In this document: positions 3,192 to 58,596 of the stretch, one piece after another | How positions within the stretch are numbered: the stretch's first letter is position 1 | How the letters are laid out: each line of letters starts with the position of its first letter | NCBI GenBank assembly: GCA_038997305.1 | Contig: JAWAZZ010000002.1 | Location: forward strand, 8,217-72,216 | Reading direction: 5' to 3' | Length of the DNA: 64,000 nt | From: Candidatus Aenigmatarchaeota archaeon | Lineage (GTDB): Archaea > Aenigmatarchaeota > Aenigmatarchaeia > CG10238-14 > SpSt-28 | The notes under the pieces: model-generated | Seen by the model: the letters and a program-made list of their open reading frames with translations, nothing else | What the model was told of the DNA's origin: nothing | Databases searched by the model: none | Position numbers and translations under genes: made by a program

Positions 3192-4125
3192 TATATGCAG
3201 CTATAGAACCTTGAGCTGCGGCAGTTACTATTTGTTTAAATCCAGCACAAGCATTAGTAACATCTCCAGCAGCAAACACACCTTTAATATTAGTTCTCAT
3301 ACCTTCATCAACAATTATTTCCCCCCTTTCATTAGTTTGAACTCCAATCTTTTTGGCTAATTCCGAATTTGGATCTAACCCAATAGCAACAAACAATCCA
3401 TCTAACTTTAAAGTCAAAGTATTTCCAGTTTTAACATCTTCTAAAACAACTTCTTCAACCTTCTTATTACCTCTTATTTCCTTGACAATCTTATTAGTTA
3501 AAATCTCTATTTTTGGATTCTGTTTTGCAGAATTTACTAAAACAGCCTCTGCTCTAAATTCATCTCTTCTATGTATTATATAAACTTTTTTTGCATGTTG
3601 AGCTAAAACTAGCGCATCATGAAATGCAGAATTTCCACCACCAACAACACCAACAACTTTATCCTTAAAGAATAACGCATCGCATTCAGCACAATAACTT
3701 ACTCCATTCAAATTTTCTCCAGGAACACCTAATTTTCTCCTCTTAGAACCTGTTGCAAATATTATTACTTTACCTTTTATTTCGTAACCCCCCAAAGTTT
3801 TAACAACAAAAATTTCATTTTCTTTTTTTACATCAATAACTTCATCTATTAATGTTTTTGCTCCAAACATTTCTGCATGCTCCTTAAATCTTAAACCTAA
3901 TTCAGAACCTTTAATAGAATAAATAGCAGGATAATCTTCAACTATAGAAGCTTCATTCATCATTCCACCAATATCTTTTGTTATAACTAATGTTTTTAAT
4001 CCATATCTAGCAGAATACAAAGCGGCTGAATATCCAGCAGCCCCTCCACCAATTATTATAACATCTACTTCTTTCTCTATTTCTTTCTCTTCTTCCACAT
4101 GCTTTGTAACCAACATTATCTGCAT
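3154..4125 (-). CDS. trxB: Thioredoxin-disulfide reductase
   Basis: FAD motif VIIIGGGAAGYSAALY, redox-active CAEC dithiol, NADPH motif VVGGGNSA and C-terminal FAAGDV motif. Confidence 0.85.
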   Translation of the reverse strand: MQIMLVTKHVEEEKEIEKEVDVIIIGGGAAGYSAALYSARYGLKTLVITKDIGGMMNEASIVEDYPAIYSIKGSELGLRFKEHAEMFGAKTLIDEVIDVKKENEIFVVKTLGGYEIKGKVIIFATGSKRRKLGVPGENLNGVSYCAECDALFFKDKVVGVVGGGNSAFHDALVLAQHAKKVYIIHRRDEFRAEAVLVNSAKQNPKIEILTNKIVKEIRGNKKVEEVVLEDVKTGNTLTLKLDGLFVAIGLDPNSELAKKIGVQTNERGEIIVDEGMRTNIKGVFAAGDVTNACAGFKQIVTAAAQGSIAAYNAFKYIKYGIWE

Positions 4126-8110: not shown

Positions 8111-9388
8111 TTACTTTGCTTTTATAACCTCTAAAACTATTCCTGCACCTACTGTCATACCCATATCTCTCATTGCAAACCTTCCTAAAGCTGGAAACTC
8201 TGAAAACTTCTCAACAACTACTGGTTTTAATGGTTGAACTCTTATTCTTGCTGCATCTCCTTTCTTTATGAATTGTGGATTCTTTTCTAATTCTTGTCCT
8301 GTTTTTGGATCTATCTTTGCTATTATTTCAACAATCTTTCCTGCAACTGTTGCTGTATGAATATGGAATACAGGAGTATATCCAACCGAAATAGATGTTG
8401 GGTGTTCCAATATTATTACCTGAGCAATAAATTCTTTTGCTACACTTGGTGGGTTTGTTGGATGACCTGCAACATCTCCTCTTCTAATATCTGTTTTTGC
8501 AACACCTCTAACATTAAATCCTATGTTATCTCCAGGTAACGCTTCTTGTAATGGTTGGTAATGCATTTCAATAGATTTTACTTCTCCCTTTACTCCTGCT
8601 GGCTCAAAAACTACAGTATCTCCAACTTTCAATCTTCCACTTTCCACTCTTCCTACTGGTACTGTACCTACACCTGTAATCGAATAAACATCTTGTATTG
8701 GAATTCTTAATGGTTTGTCTACAGGTCTTGGAGGAACTTGTAACATATCTAATGCTTCTACTAAACAAGGTCCTTTGTACCATGGCATTTTTTCGCTTCT
8801 TTTTGTTATATTTTCTCCATATTGTGCGCTTACAGGTATTACTGGAATTTTATCTACAGGAAATCCCAATGGCTTTAACAAAGTGTTTATTACTTCATCC
8901 TTTAATTTGTTATAAACTTTTTCATCATAATTTACTGTATCCATTTTTGTTATTGCAACTATCACTTGGTTAATTCCTAAAACTCTAATTAAATATGCAT
9001 GCTCTTTTGTCTGTGCTTGAATTCCTTCTCCTGGTTTTGCAGATACTACTAATATCGCAGCATCTGCTTGAGAAGCACCAGTAATCATATTCTTGACAAA
9101 ATCTCTATGACCTGGTGCGTCTATTATTGTGAAGAAGTATTTTTGTGTTTCAAATGGTCTATGAGCAATATCTATAGTCATTCCTCTCTTTCTTTCTTCT
9201 ATTTCTCTATCTAGTATGTATGCGAATTCTCCTCCTTCTATCTTGAATTCTTGTGCTAACTCTCTCAATTTCTTTAGTTCATCCTCTCTTATTGCTCCTG
9301 TTTCGTAGAATAGTCTTCCTGCTAAAGTTGATTTTCCTTGATCTACATGTCCTACAATTACTATATTTAAGTGAGGTTTCTGCGGCAT
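8111..9388 (-). CDS. tuf: Translation elongation factor 1-alpha (aEF-1A)
   Basis: G-domain motifs GHVDQGKST, DAPGHRDF and NKMD. Full three-domain length of 425 aa. Confidence 0.95.
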   Translation of the reverse strand: MPQKPHLNIVIVGHVDQGKSTLAGRLFYETGAIREDELKKLRELAQEFKIEGGEFAYILDREIEERKRGMTIDIAHRPFETQKYFFTIIDAPGHRDFVKNMITGASQADAAILVVSAKPGEGIQAQTKEHAYLIRVLGINQVIVAITKMDTVNYDEKVYNKLKDEVINTLLKPLGFPVDKIPVIPVSAQYGENITKRSEKMPWYKGPCLVEALDMLQVPPRPVDKPLRIPIQDVYSITGVGTVPVGRVESGRLKVGDTVVFEPAGVKGEVKSIEMHYQPLQEALPGDNIGFNVRGVAKTDIRRGDVAGHPTNPPSVAKEFIAQVIILEHPTSISVGYTPVFHIHTATVAGKIVEIIAKIDPKTGQELEKNPQFIKKGDAARIRVQPLKPVVVEKFSEFPALGRFAMRDMGMTVGAGIVLEVIKAK

Positions 9389-10405: not shown

Positions 10406-11587
10406 TTATTTTAAATAGTCGAAAATAGATTTTTTCTCTCTTTTAATTCCTTTTTTATAAAATTCTTCAAAATTATCTCTTATGGGTTTATAAACTTTAT
10501 CAAAAAACCTTTGTTGATCCTCCAAATCTTTTATGTCAAAAGTTTTTAAGTATTCTAAAACAAAACTCCAAATATTTTGAAAGTTGTCTATCCTTTCAAA
10601 CTTTCTTGCTATATTTATGTCAAAATCTTTAGGTAATTGTGGTTTGTCTCCCATTATAAAGAATCCAGATTTAGTATCTATAGGTGCTTTTTCATTTCCA
10701 ACTATTTCCCACTTTCTTTCACTCTCTGATTTAATTTCAAAATCTTTTTCTAAATCTTTTAACAAATAACTTTTGCCTTTAAATGAATATTGTGGTCCAT
10801 AATGTTTAGCCCAAGCATAAAAGATTGCTCTATTCAACCCAAAAGATTTAGCTTTTTCTAAATCTCCTTTTAAAAGATAATATCTCGCAGCCTGAAGCAA
10901 CGCCATAACTTCAAATCTTCCAATTTTTCTCGAAATAATCTTTTCTTCTTTTTTCAAATCTTTCAAATCCAAAAAATTCTTGACAAAATCTTCAAAATAT
11001 TCTAAATCGTATTTTATATTACTAGAATACAAAATCGATGTTTGTTTTGGCTCTTTTTTATTATTTATTGTTCCAATAACTCTTATTATTCTTGCTTCAT
11101 CTTTTACTACTTTATCAACATTATATTCATCGAAATTTTGTATAAAAAAGTTCAACAATCCTTGTTGTAATAATTTCCATTTTTCGATTTCTACAAGTTT
11201 ATTCACTTTATAATAAACATGTATTCCATTACCAGAATTTGCAATTAACGATGGTGGAATATTAAAGGAAAACAGCTTATCATAAATCTTCCTATAATCT
11301 TCTATTGCTTTTTCACTATCCAAATCTATTACAAAAACATTTCCAAATTTTACTGCTTCTCTACTTCCAATTTTTTCTACTCTAGGAAGTAAACCTATAT
11401 AGCAATCTTTATCTTTTAGTTTCTCTAAATTTTTCTTAAAGAATGAAAGCACATCTATTTTTCTTTCGAAAAACTCTTGAAGATAAATATTATTTTGATG
11501 TAAAACTCTTAACTCCCAATAAATTTTTTCACCTTCATATCCGCTACACAAAAAGTTAAGAAATTCTTCTATAATCGAAATGTTCAT
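10406..11587 (-). CDS. priS: Archaeo-eukaryotic primase catalytic subunit PriS (compact form, possibly a PriS-PriL-type fusion)
   Basis: AEP motifs VFVIDLD (DxD) and SGNGIHVYY (SG.G.H), plus an N-terminal FY-containing helical region. No separate PriL gene in the window. The C-terminal roughly 150 aa are helical and could be a PriL-like module, as in Nanoarchaeota-type fused primases. Confidence 0.6.
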   Translation of the reverse strand: MNISIIEEFLNFLCSGYEGEKIYWELRVLHQNNIYLQEFFERKIDVLSFFKKNLEKLKDKDCYIGLLPRVEKIGSREAVKFGNVFVIDLDSEKAIEDYRKIYDKLFSFNIPPSLIANSGNGIHVYYKVNKLVEIEKWKLLQQGLLNFFIQNFDEYNVDKVVKDEARIIRVIGTINNKKEPKQTSILYSSNIKYDLEYFEDFVKNFLDLKDLKKEEKIISRKIGRFEVMALLQAARYYLLKGDLEKAKSFGLNRAIFYAWAKHYGPQYSFKGKSYLLKDLEKDFEIKSESERKWEIVGNEKAPIDTKSGFFIMGDKPQLPKDFDINIARKFERIDNFQNIWSFVLEYLKTFDIKDLEDQQRFFDKVYKPIRDNFEEFYKKGIKREKKSIFDYLK

Positions 11588-15506: not shown

Positions 15507-16160
15507 ATGAATAGCATAGAAAAAATTTACGTTAAAGATTTTTATGATGTCGCTGCAGATAGCTGGATAAATATTAGACAAAAATTTAAAGTTTTAGAAA
15601 AATTTAAACATATACAAAACAAAAAAATACTTGAAGTTGGTTGCGGAACAGCTACTCAATTACTTGAATTTAAAGAAAACTTTCTTGTTGGTATTGATAT
15701 ATCAAAGAAAATGATTAAATATGCTATTGAAAACGCAAAAAAGAAAAACGTTAAAATATATTTCGTATTAGCAGATGCTAGAAAATTACCATTTAAAGAA
15801 AAAACTTTTGATTTTGTATTAAGCATCGCTACAATACATCACATCTATAGAAGAAAAGATCGAATTAAAGCTCTAATAGAAATGGTAAGAGTTTGTAAAG
15901 ATTCCTGTTTTATTTCAGTTTTGAAAAGATATTCAACTCTAACATTTAAAAAACTCTTTATAGATTTTTTCAGATTCTTTTCATTTGGAAATATATTCTT
16001 AGAATGGAAGTATAGAGGAAAGAAATTGAAAAGATTTTATCATACATATTCACTAAGAGAATTAAAGAGTGATTTGAAAATTGTCGAGAAATTTTTTAAG
16101 ATATCTTATGAAATTTCTCAAGACAAACTAAACTTCTTTGTACTAATAAAAAAATATTAG
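15507..16160 (+). CDS. Class I SAM-dependent methyltransferase
   Basis: Motif I ILEVGCGTATQ, and acidic motif II and post-II residues VLADARKLPF. Confidence 0.6.
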   Translation: MNSIEKIYVKDFYDVAADSWINIRQKFKVLEKFKHIQNKKILEVGCGTATQLLEFKENFLVGIDISKKMIKYAIENAKKKNVKIYFVLADARKLPFKEKTFDFVLSIATIHHIYRRKDRIKALIEMVRVCKDSCFISVLKRYSTLTFKKLFIDFFRFFSFGNIFLEWKYRGKKLKRFYHTYSLRELKSDLKIVEKFFKISYEISQDKLNFFVLIKKY

Positions 16161-16261
16161 CCCCGCCCGGATTCGAACCGGGGTCTCCGGGTTTCTTTCA
16201 TCCTTTATCAAAGCTTTGGATGCCCAAAGCCCGGCATCCTTGGCCACTAGACGACGGGGCT
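16158..16261 (-). tRNA. tRNA-Gln (anticodon TTG) with an anticodon-loop intron of about 31 nt
   Basis: Reverse complement has an AGCCCCG/CGGGGCT acceptor stem with the A1:U72 pair typical of archaeal tRNA-Gln, TTCGAAT T-loop, anticodon stem CCGGG/CCCGG and loop CUUUGG. A roughly 31-nt insert (GCATCCAAAGCTTTGATAAAGGATGAAAGAA) sits at the canonical 37/38 position. Confidence 0.75.
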
Positions 16262-20578: not shown

Positions 20579-21001
20579 TCAATCTTTTAGAATCTCTTTT
20601 ATTTTTTCTATTTTTTCTTTAAGCTTTTTGTTTTCTTCTATAATATTTGCTAGTTCTCCTGAAAAAAACAAATTGACTAGCTCGATTTCATTCTTCAATT
20701 CTCCCTTCTTCAAAAGTTCATAAGTTTCTAAAACTAATTTTCCTGCTTTAGATTCTCCTTCTATATGTTTCTTTATAGTTTGTTCAGTTCTCCCAACTTC
20801 TGTAGCAATTTCTCTTAAACTCATTTTGGCTTTTGCTCTTGCTATAGCTGCTGCAGCTACAAATAAACTGTCTACCCACGTTAGTCTTTCTTGTGGATCT
20901 TTTGCAAGCTCCAATACATCTTTTCTAAACAAAGTAGCAAAAAATAAATAATTCTGCAAATCCTCTATCTCTTTTCTTCCTATTGGATTTAATGGTATCA
21001 T
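20579..21001 (-). CDS. HTH DNA-binding regulator (140 aa)
   Basis: Helix-turn-helix segment [21 protein letters not shown]. Overlaps the KaiC-like gene by 4 nt. Confidence 0.45.
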
Positions 21002-21720
21002 AATTTAACAATTCTATCTTTATGAACTATTATTCCTTTATCTGTTATTTCGAATTCGTGTCTTTTCATAGAGTGAGATGTACCTCTCATTTTCCAAATT
21101 ATTAAAGACCTTTTCAACTCTCCATTAATCTCGTCTAAATCTAGCCTTATTATTCCATCTACTCCATGCTCAACTCCAGGACCACCAAACCCTCTTTCTC
21201 CAACACTTATCTGACTTACAAAAATACTTGTAGTTCCTAAACCTGCAAAAACTCTTTTTAATGTTAATACAATCTTTCTAGCAACACTTGGTTTATCTAT
21301 ATATAATGTTGTGACACTATCAATAACAACCCTTTTTGCATTAACATTAGTTACTGCTTCTCTAACTACATCTATAAATTCCCTTAGATCTGTTAAATCT
21401 TGAACTATATATTTTTCATACTCTTTAGCCTTTCCTATTCCGCTACTAAACGCATCTACCAAAGCAAACATATTTTTTTCTTCATATTGCTTTACATTCC
21501 ATCCAAATTGTAACATGTTTTGCCTAACTTGTGCCGGATGTTCCTCTAAAGCAACATATACTCCATTTTCATTCATCTGCAGCCCATTCCATAAGAATTG
21601 TTGAGCAAATATAGTCTTTCCAGTACCTGGTCCTCCGCTTAATAAAACTACGTTTCTCTCTGGAATTCCCCCATTTAATAAATCATCTAAGCCAGGTATT
21701 CCTGTTTTTACTCTTCTCAT
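20998..21720 (-). CDS. KaiC-like single-domain RecA-superfamily ATPase
   Basis: [14 protein letters not shown]...[17 protein letters not shown], then YVALEEHP...FGWN, the KaiC/RadB-type pattern. Length 240 aa. Confidence 0.75.
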
Positions 21721-21741: not shown

Positions 21742-24474
21742 TTAAAAAGATAAAACTTTTGATTTTGCGCTAGAAGAATAAAAGATTATTTCACCATTAC
21801 AAATAGGACATATACCATTTAACGTAGGTCTTCTATAAACTGTAGAGCAATTATTACAAATAAAACCTATTAATTCTTCATGCTTTATCTTATCTGCAAT
21901 ACCTTTCGAAATCTGCTTATTTTCGCTATTACCATTACCGTTTTTTATCGTATTATTTATTAAAGATAATAGGGAAATCTGCCTACTACCAGTTATAAAC
22001 TGAGAAGATGAAATACCTATTACATTGAATATTCTTTCGAGTGGAGGCAAAAGTTGATGATAGATATAATAATCTGCATCTATCGGTATCTTGTTTTTCT
22101 TTACATATTCTGGTGTTTCTGCCCTTTCAACAATTTTTTGTGGACCTGCAACTATTACATAACTTACTCTATCACCAACACCAGGTATATTTGCCTCTCC
22201 TCTCCTTATCATTTTCTTAACAAGCTCAATGTGTGGTTGCTGACCTTTATATTTATCTAACGGTCTTGATATCGATTTTACTATTGCCAATTTTTCTACA
22301 TCAATTTCATTATTTTTCAATTTCTTAAATATATCTCTTACATACTCAAAAGCTTTTTTCTTGTCGCCTTCTATCAGCAATATTTCTATCACTTTCGACA
22401 AAGTTTCGGTAACTAAATCACACCAATCTCTTCTTACAGTTTCTATACCTTTCATTACTATCTTACCATTATCTTTTAAATCTTCGAATAAATATCCAGC
22501 ATATTTTTTCTTTGTTATAAAAATTATTTTTTTCATTACACCTTCTATCTTCATCTTTATGTATTCTGGAGTTTTTGAATTAACATACTCTTCTATCTTT
22601 TTTCCTACTTCAAAAACTTTTTCAAAGCTATCTACATTATTACCAACTTTTACCATTACAGAATCTGTATCACCATAAACAACTTCATAACCTAGTTCTT
22701 TTTCTACTATTTCTTTAACTCTTGTTATCCAATATCTACCATAAGCTGTTATCGTGTTTGCAATGTCAGAAACAAAAAATCTAGCTCTCAAATATCCGCT
22801 ATATCCATAAAAAGCATTGGCTAAAAGTTTTAATGCTAGTTGTTTTGCATCAAGCAAATTTTTCTTTATAGGATCTTGTTCTTTTTTCATTAAGCTTTTT
22901 ACTTTATCTCTTTCTTCTATTAATCTTTTTAAAACTCTGGGATAAATTCCTTCTTTAACTTTTTTAGAAACAAAATATGTTTTAATGGGTGATTCTATAA
23001 CTTCTAATCCTTCTACTTTATTTTTTAAATAAGTTGTTGGGCAAATATTGTATTGAATTATTAAACTTGGATATAGAGATTTGAAATCTAAGTAAACAAC
23101 ATTTTCATGTAACCCTGCTTTAGGCTCTAAAACTATTGCACCTTTCACTTCTTCCTTTTCTCTTTCTTTCAATTCTCTTTTACTTGGTTTATTAGGTATA
23201 ACAATATCTTCTTTATTAAATTCTCTTAGCAAAAACTGTTCTATTCTTAAAGATTCGCTTCCACTTAATGAATCTTGCAATAATAATCCGCTCAATCTAG
23301 AAATTTCTATATACTGGGAAATAAAATCTCTGCTTAACATAATTTCCAAAACTAATTCTGCATCCGTTTTTGCATATTTTATCAATCTTAACAAATCTTC
23401 ATCACTTCCTTTCCAAAGTTTTATTATTTCACTTCTATCTACATCTTCCTTCGTTTTTCCTATAAGAATTTGAGCAACATCACCCAAACCCAATCTTTTT
23501 GTTTTAAACATTCCTTTTTTAGAAAATTCTTTAAGTATTTCGTAAAAGTCTATTATAACTCTTCCAACAATAGAATTTTTGTATCTTTCCTCACCTATTT
23601 TGGAAGATTTAGCCGATTTTTTAGCTCTTCCTAAATAGGGTTTTATCTTGTTTATTCTGCATCTTTCTACAATATATGGAATATCAAAGTTGTTGATGTT
23701 GTACCCAATTAAAAAATCGGGATCGAACTTTTTCACGATTTCTAAAAACTTTTTTAGCATTTCAGCTTCATTCTCAAAACTTAATATATAATCGTGCTCA
23801 TTACTTAAATTAACTTTTTTTGAAACTAATACCAAACTTTTTTTACCTTCAAATTCTGGATAAAACGATAGAGATATTATTGATATAGGATTCGTTTTAA
23901 CATCAGGAATTCCACTCTCATTTGCAACTTCAATATCAAAAGATAAAATTTTGAAATTAGGTAATTTATTTTCTTCTAATTCTTCAAACTTGCTAGCTTC
24001 GAATTTTAACTCTGTAAAAACTGTTTTTGTATGGTTAACAAATTCGCCTTCTGCTACATACCATTTACAACCAGCTAAATTATTATCTGCCATGAATCTA
24101 TATTTGAAAAGTATGTCTGCTTCGAATGTTTTTTCGACAAAACTTTGGGAATGTAAATCCTCTCTTATTAAAGGAACTTTCGAAGGATTTTTGAGAGTTA
24201 TCTTATATAACTTCGCTTTCTTATCCTGATAACCTATTGGCAAATATTTTTCAACCTTTTCAACTTTTACTATTAAATTCTTATATTTTCTTTCTAAAAA
24301 ATCAAAAAATAAATGTTCGCTGTTTTCTTTTATTTTAACATAAAAGTAAGGAAAGAAATTTCTAACAAAAATTGTTATGGAATTGTTTGTTTCAGTTTTT
24401 CCATATATTCTAATTAGAGGTACATCGTCTACAATATCATAATCTACATCTAACAAGAAAAAACTAACTTTCAT
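21742..24474 (-). CDS. polB: Family-B DNA polymerase (PolB copy 1) with a C-terminal Cys4 zinc-ribbon extension
   Basis: Exo I FDIEV, Exo II YNINNFDIPYI, Exo III YAKTDAEL. Pol A DFKSLYPSLII, Pol B KLLANAFYGYSGY, Pol C YGDTDS. C-terminal roughly 100-aa extension ending CNNCSTVYRRPTLNGICPICNG (C-x2-C-x14-C-x2-C). Confidence 0.95.
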   Translation of the reverse strand: MKVSFFLLDVDYDIVDDVPLIRIYGKTETNNSITIFVRNFFPYFYVKIKENSEHLFFDFLERKYKNLIVKVEKVEKYLPIGYQDKKAKLYKITLKNPSKVPLIREDLHSQSFVEKTFEADILFKYRFMADNNLAGCKWYVAEGEFVNHTKTVFTELKFEASKFEELEENKLPNFKILSFDIEVANESGIPDVKTNPISIISLSFYPEFEGKKSLVLVSKKVNLSNEHDYILSFENEAEMLKKFLEIVKKFDPDFLIGYNINNFDIPYIVERCRINKIKPYLGRAKKSAKSSKIGEERYKNSIVGRVIIDFYEILKEFSKKGMFKTKRLGLGDVAQILIGKTKEDVDRSEIIKLWKGSDEDLLRLIKYAKTDAELVLEIMLSRDFISQYIEISRLSGLLLQDSLSGSESLRIEQFLLREFNKEDIVIPNKPSKRELKEREKEEVKGAIVLEPKAGLHENVVYLDFKSLYPSLIIQYNICPTTYLKNKVEGLEVIESPIKTYFVSKKVKEGIYPRVLKRLIEERDKVKSLMKKEQDPIKKNLLDAKQLALKLLANAFYGYSGYLRARFFVSDIANTITAYGRYWITRVKEIVEKELGYEVVYGDTDSVMVKVGNNVDSFEKVFEVGKKIEEYVNSKTPEYIKMKIEGVMKKIIFITKKKYAGYLFEDLKDNGKIVMKGIETVRRDWCDLVTETLSKVIEILLIEGDKKKAFEYVRDIFKKLKNNEIDVEKLAIVKSISRPLDKYKGQQPHIELVKKMIRRGEANIPGVGDRVSYVIVAGPQKIVERAETPEYVKKNKIPIDADYYIYHQLLPPLERIFNVIGISSSQFITGSRQISLLSLINNTIKNGNGNSENKQISKGIADKIKHEELIGFICNNCSTVYRRPTLNGICPICNGEIIFYSSSAKSKVLSF

Positions 24475-24507
24475 GAAATTTTAAAATATGTATGTGATAT
24501 ATATGAG

Positions 24508-25518
24508 TTACTCTTCTCTATTATATATTTTCTTTTCTTTAAAATCGATTAAACAGTTCTTAAGGTTCTTAGGAATTTCTATCATTAACGGGTTTGTATC
24601 AACAAAATTCGCTCTATCTTTATTAGAATTGTAAACTATAAAAACGTTTGGTAATTGAAGAAGTAGTGCCATATCATCTTTATATTTTACAAACTCTTCG
24701 AACTTAGGTGTTATTAATCTAGTCTTTAAGAAAAAATCTAAATCAAAACCTATCTTATTCGAATCAATAGCAACAAAGAAGAAATCCTCTATAAAAAACC
24801 TATGTATAGGGATTTTCCTATCCAAATAAATAGTATTTTCTTCTACTTTATTTTCATCGGCTAAAAAAATATTTACATCTCCTTTATCTTCACTTTCTAT
24901 TTTTTCAGTAAAAAATCCTATTTTTAAATCTAAATTCGAGTTTTGTTTGGAAACTTTCTCAAAATCTTTTTGTTTAAATTCTGGAAAGAATATCTCTTCA
25001 AAAACTATTTGAGAATCTTCGAAAAAACATTTAGCACCTATTACTATATCTTCCCTTAAGTATTTCAAATAACTCTTAGCCTTTTCTGATAATTTGACTT
25101 CCACTCTAGAAGATAAATCCTCTATTACTATTTTTTCATCTCTAACCGAGTATAAAATTCCTATTATCGAAAATGTTTTAAACCTCTTAGAAATTTTATT
25201 AATAGAAATTGGATTTAAAAATAATACATCGTTCTTTATTATCTCAGAAAGTTTTTCGTATCTTCTTTTTATAATTTCTATATACTCTATTATTTTTATC
25301 TCGGTATGTAGTGTTGGAAATATCATCGAGATTTTATATATTTTTTTCTTAGCTTCCCTTAATATCTTTTCTATTTCATTTTTTTCTAGAACTTTTGGTT
25401 CTTGAGATTTTGGTAAACTATTCAATAATAACTTAAATTCGTCATCACTCAGCGATAGTATATATTTAGAATCCCTAACTAAATATCCTTTTTTTAAAAG
25501 TTCTATTATTCTATCCAT
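24508..25518 (-). CDS. Hypothetical protein; tentative PolD-DP1/eukaryotic B-subunit-like accessory protein with a degenerate phosphoesterase domain
   Basis: The N-terminus LLKKGYLVRDSKYILSLSDDEFKLLL resembles the DP1 N-terminal helical domain (LLENGYLITPSAYYLL...). It is followed by an OB-like segment (FSIIGILYSVRDEKIVIEDLSSRVEVKL...IVIGAKC). No intact calcineurin-type GDxHG or GNHE motifs. Ends 34 nt upstream of PolB on the same strand. Confidence 0.35.
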   Translation of the reverse strand: MDRIIELLKKGYLVRDSKYILSLSDDEFKLLLNSLPKSQEPKVLEKNEIEKILREAKKKIYKISMIFPTLHTEIKIIEYIEIIKRRYEKLSEIIKNDVLFLNPISINKISKRFKTFSIIGILYSVRDEKIVIEDLSSRVEVKLSEKAKSYLKYLREDIVIGAKCFFEDSQIVFEEIFFPEFKQKDFEKVSKQNSNLDLKIGFFTEKIESEDKGDVNIFLADENKVEENTIYLDRKIPIHRFFIEDFFFVAIDSNKIGFDLDFFLKTRLITPKFEEFVKYKDDMALLLQLPNVFIVYNSNKDRANFVDTNPLMIEIPKNLKNCLIDFKEKKIYNREE

Positions 25519-25527
25519 TTCATATTA

Positions 25528-25791
25528 TTATTTTTTAACTTCTAAATAGTAAAGTGTTAAGCCTTTTTCGTTTGGTTTTTTTGAATGTGGTGTTTCCATC
25601 TTTTTTACTCTATCTAGTTTTACCAATTCTTCTAAATATTTTCTGACTGTGTTCCAACTAACATTTTTTTTCAATCTTTCTGAAATAAATGCTGTTATTT
25701 TTCTCACGTTAGATGGATATGGATGTAATGAAAAATACTCTTCTATTAAAGAATAGATTTCAAATCTTATCGACGGTCTACCCCTCTTCAT
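25528..25791 (-). CDS. Small winged-helix DNA-binding protein (87 aa)
   Basis: Basic wHTH-like pattern (NVSWNTVRKYLEELVKLDRVKKMET...GLTLYYL). Borders the iteron-containing gap. Confidence 0.45.
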   Translation of the reverse strand: MKRGRPSIRFEIYSLIEEYFSLHPYPSNVRKITAFISERLKKNVSWNTVRKYLEELVKLDRVKKMETPHSKKPNEKGLTLYYLEVKK

Positions 25792-26058
25792 AATATTTTT
25801 TATGAACTTTCATATTATAATTTGTGCAATCCATATATATATTTACTTGATTTCTGTTTCTTAATAACATTGTAGTAAATAAAACAATCCTAAGTTTTTA
25901 ATACTAAAACAAAATTAATTAAAATTATAACGTTGTTATATTTGATATTGATCAATAAGTTATTAAAAATGTAACGTTATTAAAAATTGGACAAAATTTA
26001 AATAAAGATTAAATTCATTCTTTATTAAATTTGTTACACAAATATTTTTTCGAATATT

Positions 26059-26194
26059 TTCAGAAAAATTCTGAAACTTTTCAAAAATTCTTAGAAACTT
26101 CATAAAAATTGGTAGAATTTTCATAAAAAATGTTTGAAAGTTCATAGAAATTTTCTGAATATTTTCAAAAAATCTCTGAAAGTTCATAAAAATT
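26059..26194. repeat. Array of about seven imperfect 21-bp direct repeats (iterons), consensus about TCTGAAAGTTCATAAAAATTC
   Basis: Cores TTCAGAAAAATT, TTCAAAAATTC, TTCATAAAAATT, TTCATAAAAAAT, TTCATAGAAATT, TTCAAAAAATC and TTCATAAAAATT begin at about 26059, 26080, 26099, 26120, 26141, 26164 and 26183. Periodicity is 19-23 bp, about two helical turns. The array lies in the 452-bp non-coding gap 25792..26243. Confidence 0.6.
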
Positions 26195-26243
26195 CTCAGA
26201 AAATAACAAGAACAATATAGGAATAATCTTCACTTCTGAGAAG

Positions 26244-35415: not shown

Positions 35416-35505
35416 CGCCCCGGCCGGGATTCGAACCCGGGTCTGCGGCGTTCTGTTGGATTAACATTGACAGGCCGCCATCCTAGACCACTAGACGACC
35501 GGGGC
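35416..35505 (-). tRNA. tRNA-Asp (anticodon GTC) with an intron of about 17 nt at a non-canonical position near 38/39
   Basis: Reverse complement has a GCCCCGG/CCGGGGC acceptor stem, anticodon stem GCGGC/GCCGC and loop CTGTCAA, a 17-nt insert TGTTAATCCAACAGAAC before the 3' half of the stem, TTCGAAT T-loop and discriminator G. Confidence 0.65.
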
Positions 35506-48959: not shown

Positions 48960-49304
48960 TTAATAATTTATTTGGAAGTATTTTTTTGTTTTTACTATTC
49001 TCCTTTTAATTTGTTTAGATAATTCTTTATCTTCTGTAGCTACAATATATTCATCTTTATATTTCAAAATAAGTTCATCTACTTTTCCTTTGATTTTAAT
49101 AACTTCGATTTTTCCATTTTTTATTAATAACTTTACTTCTTTCAAAACATTTTTACTAATATTTCCTATCTCAGCTAACGTTGCTTCAAAAATATAGATT
49201 TTGTAATTCCCTAAATTTTGATTTAGAAAATCTTCAAATAACTGAAACTTTTTTTCTTTGATTAGATATACTAAAAAATTTGTATCCAACAAGACTTTTT
49301 CCAT
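48960..49304 (-). CDS. PIN-domain protein (VapC/Fcf1-like ribonuclease fold)
   Basis: N-terminal VLLDTNFLVYL (first acidic residue) and C-terminal IVATEDKEL (last acidic residues). Confidence 0.5.
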   Translation of the reverse strand: MEKVLLDTNFLVYLIKEKKFQLFEDFLNQNLGNYKIYIFEATLAEIGNISKNVLKEVKLLIKNGKIEVIKIKGKVDELILKYKDEYIVATEDKELSKQIKRRIVKTKKYFQINY

Positions 49305-50227
49305 ATATTTTTATGGAAATATATCCAATATCTTTTGATTCGTTAGGAGTAAGAAGCATGGCAACTTTTGTAAAGACGAATATTAATATTTTTATAGATC
49401 CTTATGCTGCATTAGCCCCAAAAAGATATGGATTAATTCCACATGAAATAGAATTTAACATGCTAAAATTTTATTTGAATATAATTTATAAGCTTGGAAA
49501 AATTAGTGAATACGTTATTATTACTCATTATCATTACGACCATCATCCGAGACCAAATGATAGTATTTTTTTCGAAAACTTTAAAAGAGCTAAGTTTTTA
49601 ATCAAAGATTTTAGTAAAGAACATAGAAGTGCAAGAGTAAGAGGTAATATCTTTGTTAAAAATTTAGAAAAACATGAAATAGAATATGAATACGTAGATG
49701 GAGAAGAAATAAAAATAGGTAGCACAAAATTAATATTTTCTGAACCAGTATGGCACGGAGAAATTAATTCTAAAGTGGGCAGAGTAATCACTGTTTTAAT
49801 AAAATATAAAAAGAAAAAGTTGTTTTTTGGTAGCGATGCACAATTTTTAATAGACGAAAATGCGTTAAATTTTGTTTTAGATAATAAACCAATTTTTTTA
49901 ATAGTAGACGGATTTCCAACAATATTAGAAGGTTATAAAGTTAGCTCGGAAAGCTTTAAAATAGGATTAAAACACATGAAAACTATTATAGATGAAGTAG
50001 AATTCGAAAAAATGATTGTTGATCATCATTTAGTTAGAGATAAAAACTTCAAAGAGAAGTTTCCATATTATTCAGAAAAAATAATAACAGCTGCCGAATT
50101 TTATGGTTTACAAAATTTACAATTAGAAGCTTATAGAAAAGAACTTTATAATGGATATGAATTCGATTTGGAAATCTATAAAAATCAAATTTTAAAAGTA
50201 GCGGAAAAAATTATTAATGGTATATGA
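49280..50227 (+). CDS. Metallo-beta-lactamase-fold hydrolase
   Basis: HxHxDH motif in VIITHYHYDHH, plus downstream His/Asp residues. Length 315 aa. Confidence 0.6.
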   Translation: MYPTRLFPYIFMEIYPISFDSLGVRSMATFVKTNINIFIDPYAALAPKRYGLIPHEIEFNMLKFYLNIIYKLGKISEYVIITHYHYDHHPRPNDSIFFENFKRAKFLIKDFSKEHRSARVRGNIFVKNLEKHEIEYEYVDGEEIKIGSTKLIFSEPVWHGEINSKVGRVITVLIKYKKKKLFFGSDAQFLIDENALNFVLDNKPIFLIVDGFPTILEGYKVSSESFKIGLKHMKTIIDEVEFEKMIVDHHLVRDKNFKEKFPYYSEKIITAAEFYGLQNLQLEAYRKELYNGYEFDLEIYKNQILKVAEKIINGI

Positions 50228-55568: not shown

Positions 55569-56159
55569 ATGAAATATACATTTTACTTACTTTCGACAAT
55601 CTTTGTAGTTTTTTTGTTTCAAATTATCATAGATAATTTTACTTCGATATTTTCTTTAATTCCTAAAAAAGTTTTTGAAGGAGAATTATGGAGAATCGTT
55701 ACATCTATTTTTTTACATGCAGATTTTTTCCATCTGTTTTTCAATTCATTTGCTTTATTGATGTTTGGACCAATTTTGGAAAATACTATAGGCAATAAGA
55801 GATTCTTAATAGTATTTTTTATAAGCGGAATTTTAGGAAATTTTGCATATCTATTAACGAGTTTTGTTGTAAATGATCTAGGTACACCAGCTTTAGGCGC
55901 TAGTGGTGCAATATATGGAGTAATAGGGACTTTAGCTATATTAAAACCTACCACAATAGTTTTTGTCTATTTTATTCCAGTACCTCTCTTATTTTTGGCC
56001 ATATTTTGGATATTTACAGAATCTTTAGGAACAATATTACAATTATTCGGTGCAAAAACATCTATAGCATATCAAGCACATTTGGCTGGTTTACTATTCG
56101 GAATTTTTTATGGATATAGATTAAAAGAAAGTGGAATTAAAATTAGATATTATTACTGA
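55569..56159 (+). CDS. Rhomboid intramembrane serine protease
   Basis: Catalytic GASGAIYG (GxSG) and AHLAGLLFG (His). Six TM segments. ATG at 55569 chosen over the upstream alternative start at 55485, which would overlap the divergent NMD3 gene by 50 nt. Confidence 0.8.
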   Translation: MKYTFYLLSTIFVVFLFQIIIDNFTSIFSLIPKKVFEGELWRIVTSIFLHADFFHLFFNSFALLMFGPILENTIGNKRFLIVFFISGILGNFAYLLTSFVVNDLGTPALGASGAIYGVIGTLAILKPTTIVFVYFIPVPLLFLAIFWIFTESLGTILQLFGAKTSIAYQAHLAGLLFGIFYGYRLKESGIKIRYYY

Positions 56160-58596
56160 AAAATTTGGATAAAGAAGTTTGCTTTGTTCCTTTGATTATG
56201 TCACTTTCAGTAATGTTTAAAACAGAGAGAACTCTTAATGCAGCAGGTAATATTTGATTTGAAATATAATATTCAACATCCACATCTTCTTTTTTTACAA
56301 AAAGAGCATATTCTGCTTTTTCAGATATAGAATTTCCATACTTCGTTATTACAAAAGGTATTATACTTCCTTCAGATATTTTTATTCCTCTTTGCATAGC
56401 TTTTTTAGCTGCAATTACATGAGGACTTATTTGTTTATATTCGCTAATGTTTTTTGTTAATTGCTCGTATATTGTAACATCTTCTAATTTAAAGTCGAAA
56501 TTTCTTAATTTTTGAATTACATTTCTTACATATTCTATTGCCTTTTTTGTATCATTTTCTTTTAATATTATTTCTAGAACATTTCTTTGAACTAACTTAG
56601 CTAATTTACACCAATCTCTTCTAACTGTTTCAAAACCTCTAATTTCTAAAGATCCATCTTCACTTAATAATGCATATCTCTTTTTGGCACCAGCTTCCTT
56701 TTCTCTTTTTTTGACGAAAATTCCTCTAACATAAAATCCTCTAAATTCTAACTCCATTTTACTTTTTAAAGAAGAATTAACTAAGTTCAAAAAGTTTTGA
56801 GCAGCTTTTATAAAATCTTCTTTATTGAGTTTTGAAGTTATCATAAGGGAATCTGTATCTCCATATATTATTTCAAAGTTGAAGCTTTTAGCCAATTCAG
56901 CAACTTTTTTAATATAGCTTCTTTCAAAGGCAGTAACACTTTCCGCGCATTCTCTTTTATACCATCTCGCACCAACATAACCTAAATATCCATATGTTGC
57001 GTTTGCAAGAATTTTAAGAGAGTATTGTAGCGCGTCTAGTAATTTATACTCTTCACTATTTTTATCTATATTTTTCATTAACTTCTTTATTCTCGCTCGT
57101 TCATCGATTAAAAATTCTAAGTGTTTAGGTATAAAACCTTTTCTTAAAGTGCAAAAATGATAATTTAGTTCAGGAACTTTGTTTTCTGATTTACAGATTT
57201 CATGTTCACAATTAAAAGTGTCTATCGAAATATTATGAGCAACGATTATTGTTGGATATAAAGATTTGAAATCTAACACAATTATATTTTCGTGTATACC
57301 TGTTTTTGGCTCAAAAACAAAAGCACCTTTATAAGGAGCCTTTAATCTTCTTATTTTTAATTCTTCGTGTTTAGGTCTGTTGGGTGCTATTTGATTATCC
57401 TTATATGAATTTTTTAAAAGATAAGCTTCTACAAGCTGAGAATATGTGTTTCTGCAAACATCAAATAAACTTAAAGAAGTTATTTTAGATAGTGCAATCA
57501 TCTGTGGTAAAAATATATCTAAAAGTTTTAGAACTAGTTCGCAATCCCAAACATTATATTCTATCGCTTTTTTTATATCTATTCCTTGTTTGAATATTAA
57601 TTGCATTTCTTCAAAGGTTAGCTCTTTCTTTCCATAACCTAAAAACTCTTTTGCAACAGCATCTAAAGTTAAAACTTCTGTTTTTATGTTTGGAGATAGA
57701 ATATGGTCAACAAAAACATATAAATCTAGATAAACTCTTCCAGGAATTTTAAAAGACTTTACCCATCCTCTTTTTACAGTTTTTATTTTAGAATTTTCTT
57801 TTCCTATGTTTAGTTCTAATCCATACTTTTCTGCTTTTTCTTTTAGCAAAGGAAAATCAAAACCATCTGTATTATATCCAACTAAAATATCTGGATCTTT
57901 CTCTTTTATTATTTCTATAAATCTTTTTATTAGCTCTTTCTCAGTTTTAAAAATTTCTACATTTTCAGTTTTTTCTCCAAAATCCAAACTTAAAGTTATT
58001 TTAAATCCATCATTCCCAACTATCGATATTAATGCAATTTTTTCAGCATCTTTTTCTTCAAATATTTCTATATCAAATGCATATATTTTAAGTTTTGGTA
58101 ATTTGTTAATTTCAATATTTTCTATTTTTTCTGCTAAAATTTTCTCGTCTTTTTTTATTCCATAAACTTTCAACCAGCCAGATGGTAATATATTATTGTC
58201 TATCAGAAATCTTCTATAGAACGGAATATCATATTCGAATGTTTCTAAAACTTCATTAAAATTATCTTTTATAAATTTTCTTACTTTTGGAATTTTTCTC
58301 GGATTGTTAATAGTTATTTTTACAATTTTTACTTCTTTACCTAAAAACTCTTTTTTTAATATTTCTATATTTTCTATTTTTGCTTCAGGAATTCTTGTCT
58401 TTTTCAATTTTTCTAAAAACTCTGGAATTAAATCTTCTTTAACCAAAACGTAAAAATATGGTAAAAATCCCTTATAATAAATGACTAAATTATTTCCTTC
58501 CAAATCTTTACAGAACATTCTTATTACTGGTTTAAATTCCTTAGTAAGAACATAGTCAATATCTAATAAAAAAACCTCCTTTTCTACTTTTTCCAT
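56143..58596 (-). CDS. polB: Family-B DNA polymerase (PolB copy 2)
   Basis: Exo I FDIEIF, Exo II YNTDGFDFPLL, Exo III YNVWDCELV. Pol A DFKSLYPTIIVAHNIS, Pol B KILANATYGYLGY, Pol C YGDTDS. Length 817 aa, no Cys-rich tail. Confidence 0.95.
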   Translation of the reverse strand: MEKVEKEVFLLDIDYVLTKEFKPVIRMFCKDLEGNNLVIYYKGFLPYFYVLVKEDLIPEFLEKLKKTRIPEAKIENIEILKKEFLGKEVKIVKITINNPRKIPKVRKFIKDNFNEVLETFEYDIPFYRRFLIDNNILPSGWLKVYGIKKDEKILAEKIENIEINKLPKLKIYAFDIEIFEEKDAEKIALISIVGNDGFKITLSLDFGEKTENVEIFKTEKELIKRFIEIIKEKDPDILVGYNTDGFDFPLLKEKAEKYGLELNIGKENSKIKTVKRGWVKSFKIPGRVYLDLYVFVDHILSPNIKTEVLTLDAVAKEFLGYGKKELTFEEMQLIFKQGIDIKKAIEYNVWDCELVLKLLDIFLPQMIALSKITSLSLFDVCRNTYSQLVEAYLLKNSYKDNQIAPNRPKHEELKIRRLKAPYKGAFVFEPKTGIHENIIVLDFKSLYPTIIVAHNISIDTFNCEHEICKSENKVPELNYHFCTLRKGFIPKHLEFLIDERARIKKLMKNIDKNSEEYKLLDALQYSLKILANATYGYLGYVGARWYKRECAESVTAFERSYIKKVAELAKSFNFEIIYGDTDSLMITSKLNKEDFIKAAQNFLNLVNSSLKSKMELEFRGFYVRGIFVKKREKEAGAKKRYALLSEDGSLEIRGFETVRRDWCKLAKLVQRNVLEIILKENDTKKAIEYVRNVIQKLRNFDFKLEDVTIYEQLTKNISEYKQISPHVIAAKKAMQRGIKISEGSIIPFVITKYGNSISEKAEYALFVKKEDVDVEYYISNQILPAALRVLSVLNITESDIIKGTKQTSLSKFFSNNI

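Follow-up and report, generated by a model that had tools for sequence, protein, structure and literature searches.

Two published studies describe the closest counterparts of the system reported here, in which a family-B DNA polymerase (PolB) is paired with an inactivated version of DP1, the small subunit of the archaeal polymerase PolD, whose catalytic subunit is DP2. In the first (Kazlauskas et al. 2020, NAR 48:10142; PMC7544198), 'B6-aenigma1' PolBs with a single Zn motif resembling zinc finger III of DP2 (DP2-zfIII-like) were described, an inactive 'Aenigma' group of DP1 was defined, the absence of DP2 was noted and its replacement by PolB was proposed, the PolB's own exonuclease being suggested to make the DP1 nuclease dispensable. 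In the second (Nat Ecol Evol 2025; PMC12680538), the loss of DP2 with retention of DP1 was reported for Aenigmatarchaeota and Baldrarchaeia alone, and AlphaFold 3 (AF3) together with yeast two-hybrid (Y2H) showed that aenigmatarchaeal DP1 binds a PolB with a DP2-type C-terminal domain (PolB-DP2CTD), and not PolBs devoid of such a domain (CTD). A PolB plus dead DP1 system is already known, then, for Aenigmatarchaeota. Here, a stretch of 64,000 nt from a Candidatus Aenigmatarchaeota archaeon (positions 8,217 to 72,216 of contig JAWAZZ010000002.1, assembly GCA_038997305.1; hereafter the window) was analysed, for which a reading of the sequence alone (the original prediction) had proposed a PolB with a eukaryote-like zinc module preceded by a degenerate DP1/B-subunit gene. 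The pair is real and eukaryote-like in its architecture, so that the hypothesis was correct; the architecture is not new, since the system was described in 2020 and tested in 2025, and what the window contributes is accordingly one more instance of it and not a discovery.

The DP1-like gene (24508-25518, minus strand) encodes 336 aa and is separated by 33 nt from the PolB gene (PolB-1) on the same strand; both the predicted open reading frame (ORF) and the N-terminal sequence quoted for it were correct. Its product is a true DP1/B-subunit homolog, inactivated as described below. Pfam found no domain in the 336-aa protein, and NCBIfam, PDB profiles and a fold search were therefore needed. The NCBIfam DP1 model NF003118 matched residues 24-195 (E = 1e-13), and a hidden Markov model of DPANN DP1s also matched the protein (E = 1.7e-17). 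A profile of eight family members was aligned with the OB region of solved DP1 chains (E = 1.8e-9 to 2e-6; 1.8e-9 to 6.5e-7 for 6knb, 5ihe and 6t8h); the C-terminal phosphodiesterase (PDE) region followed, in matching order, as a further but weak match. The comparison by hhalign with 65 canonical DPANN DP1s gave a full-length alignment (probability 100%, E = 5.8e-71) that runs co-linearly through the N-terminal, OB and PDE domains. The AlphaFold 2 (AF2) model of the protein (pLDDT 84.5, pTM 0.74) was used in Foldseek, where the top 36 PDB matches were all DP1 or B-subunits (POLE2, POLD2/Pol31, Dpb2, POLA2/Pol12), with E values from 6e-11 to 3e-4, full-length alignments and a TMq of ~0.5. DP1, Pol31, Dpb2 and Pol12 were all recovered by the fold search, and DP1 by the profile searches as well; the lack of similarity that would have spoken against the original prediction was not found; the likeness that it had seen to the N-terminal helical and OB parts of DP1 and B-subunits was borne out by hhalign, the AF2 fold and NF003118.

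Three domains were delimited along the protein, all on the minus strand: a small helical domain at the N-terminus (aa 1-57; 25348-25518), based on the AF2 secondary structure and the hhalign alignment to the DP1 N-terminus; an OB-fold domain (aa ~100-180; 24979-25221) with the signature NPISINKIS, which is the best-conserved region with respect to the PDB DP1 structures and has columns that are invariant in the family alignments; and a shrunken, dead PDE-fold domain (aa 197-336; 24511-24930), co-linear with the PDE domain of DP1. The three components of the DP1/B-subunit superfamily, namely the OB fold, the C-terminal calcineurin-like PDE fold and the N-terminal helical domain, were hence present, the PDE fold in shortened form. 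The function of the small N-terminal domain of DP1 in Thermococcus is the binding of GINS. Eight relatives of the DP1-like protein were retrieved by a word-index homolog search and far more by an exhaustive profile search, which yielded 880 cluster representatives, 128 of them at E ≤ 1e-30, most with 300-410 aa.

The nuclease site of DP1 has disappeared from the protein. In the hhalign alignment, the DP1 motifs DlHxGS, VGDxV, PGNHD, YHG and GHxH correspond to TEKIES, LADEN, LDRKI, IDS and NSNK; thus, all five metal-binding PDE motifs that characterize an active DP1 (DxH, GDxxD, GNHD/E, H and GHxH) were replaced, in agreement with the predicted inactivated B-subunit without intact calcineurin-type motifs. 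Only two histidines are left in the whole protein, and about 180 aa are missing from it in comparison with the DPANN DP1s of 510-550 aa. Just one of 154 family representatives displayed at least two PDE motifs. The DP1-like proteins of three related loci (L020, L037 and L042; 389-394 aa) have kept the relics DFHMD, LGDISS and SGHFH, with GNHD lost, and these versions still gave a weak Metallophos match (E = 3e-4), while the window version has lost all the motifs and about 55 residues more. Judged from these sequences, the phosphodiesterase has decayed to different degrees across the phylum, forming a gradient in which the window protein is among the most reduced.

PolB-1 (21742-24474, minus strand) is a 910-aa protein, found where the original prediction had placed it and with the exonuclease and polymerase motifs intact, as it had stated. 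It was recognized by the Pfam models DNA_pol_B (E = 1.8e-115) and exo1 (E = 1.9e-39), and its PDB matches included PolB (E = 1e-125) and Pol delta (E = 4e-109). The complete set of motifs that defines a family-B polymerase was observed: ExoI FDIE (179), ExoII NINNFD (259) and ExoIII YAKTDAEL (367), as well as Pol A DFKSLYP (463), Pol B KLLANAFYG (549) and Pol C YGDTDS (600), so that both the exonuclease and the polymerase domain of this catalytic subunit look active. A regular expression scan detected a degenerate motif resembling a PCNA-interacting peptide (PIP), QISLLSLI (aa 832-839; 21958-21981, minus strand), at the end of the thumb, from which PCNA binding by PolB-1 may be inferred. This motif is located where CTD-less PolBs terminate, and is followed by a linker and a Zn ribbon. 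The second copy implied by the label "PolB copy 1" was also found: PolB-2 (56143-58596, minus strand), a CTD-less paralog of 817 aa that is 35% identical to PolB-1 and lacks the Cys tail, closes with QTSLSKFF, which is a canonical PIP box and falls at the place equivalent to QISLLSLI. This arrangement fits the addition of the Zn tail downstream of what would have been the original C-terminal PCNA-binding motif of PolB-1.

The C-terminal extension of PolB-1 (aa ~841-910; 21745-21954, minus strand) consists of a low-complexity linker and a zinc ribbon, a stretch that neither the Pfam nor the PDB PolB alignments reach. Since the Pfam polymerase domain stops at residue 819 and the PDB PolB alignments by ~840, its length is about 70-90 aa; the extension was predicted correctly, its length of ~100 aa was not. 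Likewise, the predicted Cys4 module is present (CNNC-x12-CPIC, aa 873-892; 21799-21858, minus strand), and the x14 spacing given for it was a miscount for x12 (C873-x2-C876-x12-C889-x2-C892). These are the sole four cysteines in the last 225 residues of the protein. In phmmer searches, the tail segment GFICNNCSTVYRRPTLNGICPICNGEIIFYSS was aligned with residues 1120-1151 of Pyrococcus abyssi DP2 (E = 2.6e-6) and the module also matched Thermococcus kodakarensis DP2 (E = 4.5e-4), while the four cysteines and an RRxPLxG core were invariant in nine of nine related loci. The invariance of these cysteines and the 128 close representatives of the DP1-like family show that neither feature is accidental. 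By sequence homology, the module is the Zn-III finger of DP2, and a single zfIII-like Cys4 in an aenigmarchaeal genome would place PolB-1 in the B6-aenigma1 group. The description "eukaryote-like" therefore applies to the architecture only, because the module itself derives most directly from DP2.

The same architecture, with eukaryotic B-subunits among the top fold matches, could instead make the pair the direct ancestor, or the closest relative among archaea, of the CTD and B-subunit of Pol alpha, delta and epsilon, and not an independent, parallel replacement of DP2 by PolB, a possibility raised by Kazlauskas et al. (PMC7544198). We consider this improbable, given that PolB-1 carries one Cys4 module and not the two of a eukaryotic CTD (CysA and CysB around a helical bundle), that this module is best matched by DP2, and that the Pfam Pol-epsilon zinc-finger model zf-DPOE did not match the PolB-1 tail, even though it matched a DPANN DP2. 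Furthermore, the 2025 study placed the Baldrarchaeia PolB3, with its full DP2 CTD, nearer to the eukaryotes, called the aenigmatarchaeal CTD degenerate and reassigned the two-finger 'B6-aenigma2' to Asgard contamination (PMC12680538).

The GTDB species representatives were scanned for the locus with the eight-sequence DP1-like alignment. All the Aenigmatarchaeota loci recovered (n = 8/8; L007, L008, L013, L020, L021, L037, L042 and L043) presented a winged-helix gene (85-88 aa), a DP1-like gene (324-394 aa) and a PolB gene (895-912 aa) in this order; their DP1-like genes had 0-1 PDE motifs, and the Cys4 tail was found on all the complete PolBs (n = 7/7). The order was also kept in the aenigmatarchaeal metagenome contigs examined, and in the window the three genes probably form one transcription unit. 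In contrast, the loci from Woese-, Pace- and Nanoarchaeota (L009-L086) comprised Orc1/Cdc6 and a canonical DP1 (2-4 PDE motifs), followed in many of them by DP2. PolB-1 thus occupies the slot of DP2 after DP1, and the gene order parallels the Orc1-DP1-DP2 order of other DPANN; this position suggests in-place replacement of DP2 by PolB, with the last DP2 finger retained, and fits an in-place recombination.

A DP2 gene was not detected in the six-frame translation of the 64-kb window, so that the DP1-DP2 neighbourhood of a canonical PolD holoenzyme was missing there. As the window is only 64 kb of an incomplete metagenome-assembled genome (MAG), and as zinc ribbons are versatile, the DP1-like protein might still have as its partner a DP2 whose gene lies outside the window, the PolB ribbon serving another role such as the binding of DNA or PCNA. 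This was deemed very unlikely, because, besides the missing gene, DP2 directly follows DP1 in other DPANN and its slot is filled here by PolB, two papers report Aenigmatarchaeota as lacking DP2 (PMC7544198, PMC12680538), and the ribbon is specifically the Zn-III finger with which DP2 contacts DP1. Least likely of all is that the DP1-like gene is a decaying PolD relic devoid of present function, placed beside PolB by history: the loss of all catalytic motifs, the shortened PDE domain and the blank Pfam result would suit it, but no locus has a broken ORF, even among relatives down to ~20% identity, the family holds the 128 close cluster representatives and the invariant OB columns mentioned above, the AF2 fold is confident, the operon-like spacing is strictly conserved and Y2H binding has been published (PMC12680538).

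In our judgement, the locus very probably encodes the replicase typical of Aenigmatarchaeota, in which PolB-1 supplies both polymerisation and proofreading, while the inactive DP1 receives the Zn-III tail of PolB-1 and serves as an adaptor of the B-subunit type. In this heterodimer, the proofreading-competent PolB-1 would stand in for DP2 as the catalytic subunit, having retained of DP2 only the final zinc finger, borne on a flexible tail at its C-terminus; this finger would dock onto the retained DP1, and DP1, having lost the Mre11-like exonuclease site and part of the PDE domain, would now be a structural or adaptor B-subunit that presumably links the polymerase to other parts of the replisome through its N-terminal and OB domains. 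Both homologies, the domain structure, the loss of five motifs, the DP2 origin of the Zn module, the strict gene adjacency and the lack of DP2 in the window were observed here, and the physical binding of DP1 to the PolB CTD and the phylum-wide absence of DP2 were taken from the literature; from these we infer that the complex is the main replicase, and likewise the nature of the adaptor role of DP1. Several points weigh against this replicase. The Y2H assays were performed with aenigmatarchaeal proteins other than those of the window, and the aenigmatarchaeal CTD was described in the same study as 'degenerate', with a predicted structure unlike the DP2 and eukaryotic CTDs (PMC12680538). At 336 aa versus 370-394 aa, the DP1-like protein of the window belongs to the most reduced versions, and only 64 kb of the genome is visible, so that a DP2 might be encoded elsewhere.

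The first gene of the operon (25528-25791, minus strand) is separated by 9 nt from the DP1-like gene that follows it and encodes a winged-helix protein of 87 aa, with an MKRGRP N-terminus and the invariant motifs SWNTVxKYLEEL and PHSK. The gene was found at this position in all the loci examined (L001-L008, L013, L020, L021, L037, L042 and L043), and the named matches of its product were all from Aenigmatarchaeota. In one of these loci (L005), two tandem winged-helix paralogs (3444-3722 and 3725-3982) are located upstream of the DP1-like gene. The AF2 model (pLDDT 86.9) has a fold like that of generic winged helix-turn-helix regulators of the PadR/MarR type; a PDB profile search with the protein gave only noise, and in the fold search neither Pol32N nor Rpa2-WH nor any other accessory domain of polymerases was specifically matched. 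The protein could be a regulator of the operon or an extra polymerase-associated subunit. Its derivation from an Orc1/Cdc6 C-terminal winged helix was tried and rejected (hhalign probability 0.4%, E = 0.15).

A box resembling a B recognition element and TATA box (BRE/TATA), GAAAGTTCATAAAAA, lies 6-21 nt before the ATG of the winged-helix gene, and is repeated in inverted form as the unit of a tandem array: the promoter-proximal box TGAAAGTTCATAAAAA (25797-25812) is a perfect 16-nt inverted copy of the array unit. In the array (26049-26222), a TTTTTATGAACTTTCAGAAAA-like unit of 21 nt recurs in ~7-8 copies, and the array is the highest-scoring tandem repeat in the window (Tandem Repeats Finder score 128). 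The 14-nt core of the repeat was not enriched over the whole window (8 matches with ≤2 mismatches versus 4.8 expected), and both of its exact copies fall in this single intergenic region. The box was kept in at least 8 of 10 related loci, and the position and sequence of the array were conserved in L001/L003/L007, L008, L020, L037, L042 and L043; two further loci (L005 and L006) have maintained only the 21-nt period, the unit being diverged, and one (L013) has no array. Box and array have thus persisted between loci with DP1-like proteins that share just ~20-37% identity. The simplest interpretation of these sequences is that the array is a predicted operator for the winged-helix protein, overlapping the core promoter. 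In the proposed system, the winged-helix protein may bind the 21-nt array that repeats the promoter box of the operon, and the two together may control the expression of the replicase.

A broader role can be imagined, in which the array, the winged-helix protein, the dead DP1 and the zinc-tailed PolB make up an origin-proximal or formerly mobile replication module, with an iteron-like array and its own DNA-binding protein in the place of the oriC and Orc1 that accompany DP1-DP2 in other DPANN. If true, the exchange of DP2 for PolB would be linked with a changed control of replication or of replicase expression. We regard it as unlikely: there was no Orc1/Cdc6 among the large ORFs of the window, the GC skew showed no origin signal near 26 kb, and no relative of the DP1-like family turned up in a scan of viral contigs, so that a present-day mobile carrier gains no support.

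The surroundings of the operon are those of an ordinary archaeal housekeeping region with a G+C content of ~27%. The 336-aa ORF is 100% identical to the hypothetical protein QW197_00875, encoded on an 83.5-kb contig of a Candidatus Aenigmatarchaeota MAG, and the window also encodes RadA, an RPA-like protein, a RIO/Bud32-type kinase, EF-1alpha, SRP54/FtsY, TFB, MetRS, HerA, STT3, 5S rRNA and tRNAs. The KaiC-like ATPase and helix-turn-helix (HTH) genes expected downstream of the polymerase were identified as a KaiC-type ATPase (20998-21720, minus strand; TIGR03877, E = 2.5e-131) and an HTH gene of the 'near_KaiC' type, a KaiC partner (20579-21001, minus strand; TIGR03879, E = 2.8e-21). The KaiC gene starts 21 nt after PolB-1 and overlaps the HTH gene by 4 nt, so these tightly packed neighbours may be co-transcribed with the polymerase genes; their synteny was held only in the closer relatives (L001, L002 and L004), other genes being found there in distant loci. 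Elsewhere in the window, two ORFs (10406-11587, minus strand, 393 aa; and 49280-50227, plus strand, 315 aa) had no Pfam match at the thresholds used, and two tRNAs were detected by Rfam and missed by ARAGORN (16158-16261, 104 nt; and 35416-35505, 90 nt; both on the minus strand); both exceed the standard tRNA length, which would be consistent with intron-containing archaeal tRNAs.

Compared with the described systems, the window is a further instance of B6-aenigma1 (PMC7544198), from which nothing essential distinguishes it: the phylum, the CTD and the inactive DP1 are the same. The main text of that study treats the co-occurrence of the genes in genomes, rather than an operon, an upstream winged-helix gene or a repeat array. 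The winged-helix gene and the array are in neither its main text nor that of the 2025 study (PMC12680538), and are apparently new, as are, it appears, the operon structure and the same-position parallel with Orc1-DP1-DP2. The added value of the window is modest and resides in these features: the operon structure, the replacement of DP2 at the same position with respect to sister DPANN, and the winged-helix gene with its 21-nt array. The Baldrarchaeia PolB3 differs in having a full-length CTD of the DP2 type, of more than 150 aa (PMC12680538), whereas the tail of the window PolB is a zinc ribbon of ~30 aa plus a linker. With PolD (P. abyssi, 6t8h/8ppt), the system shares the N-terminal, OB and PDE folds of the small subunit and the Zn-III finger; the catalytic subunit, in contrast, is a family-B polymerase instead of the double-psi beta-barrel DP2, and the window DP1 has a destroyed exonuclease site and ~180 aa fewer than the DPANN DP1s. 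No evidence for homologues of Pol32 or p12, the third and fourth subunits, was found in the window system, and its tail is one module, while in eukaryotic CTDs CysA and CysB (Fe-S in Pol delta) are joined by a helical bundle. It nonetheless resembles Pol delta, alpha and epsilon in the combination of a family-B subunit bearing a Cys-rich C-terminal tail with an inactivated PDE/OB B-subunit, and Pol delta also in having proofreading in the exonuclease domain of the PolB, illustrating that the eukaryotic architecture of catalytic and B-subunits can arise in archaea when the DP2 core is swapped for a PolB and the docking finger is kept.

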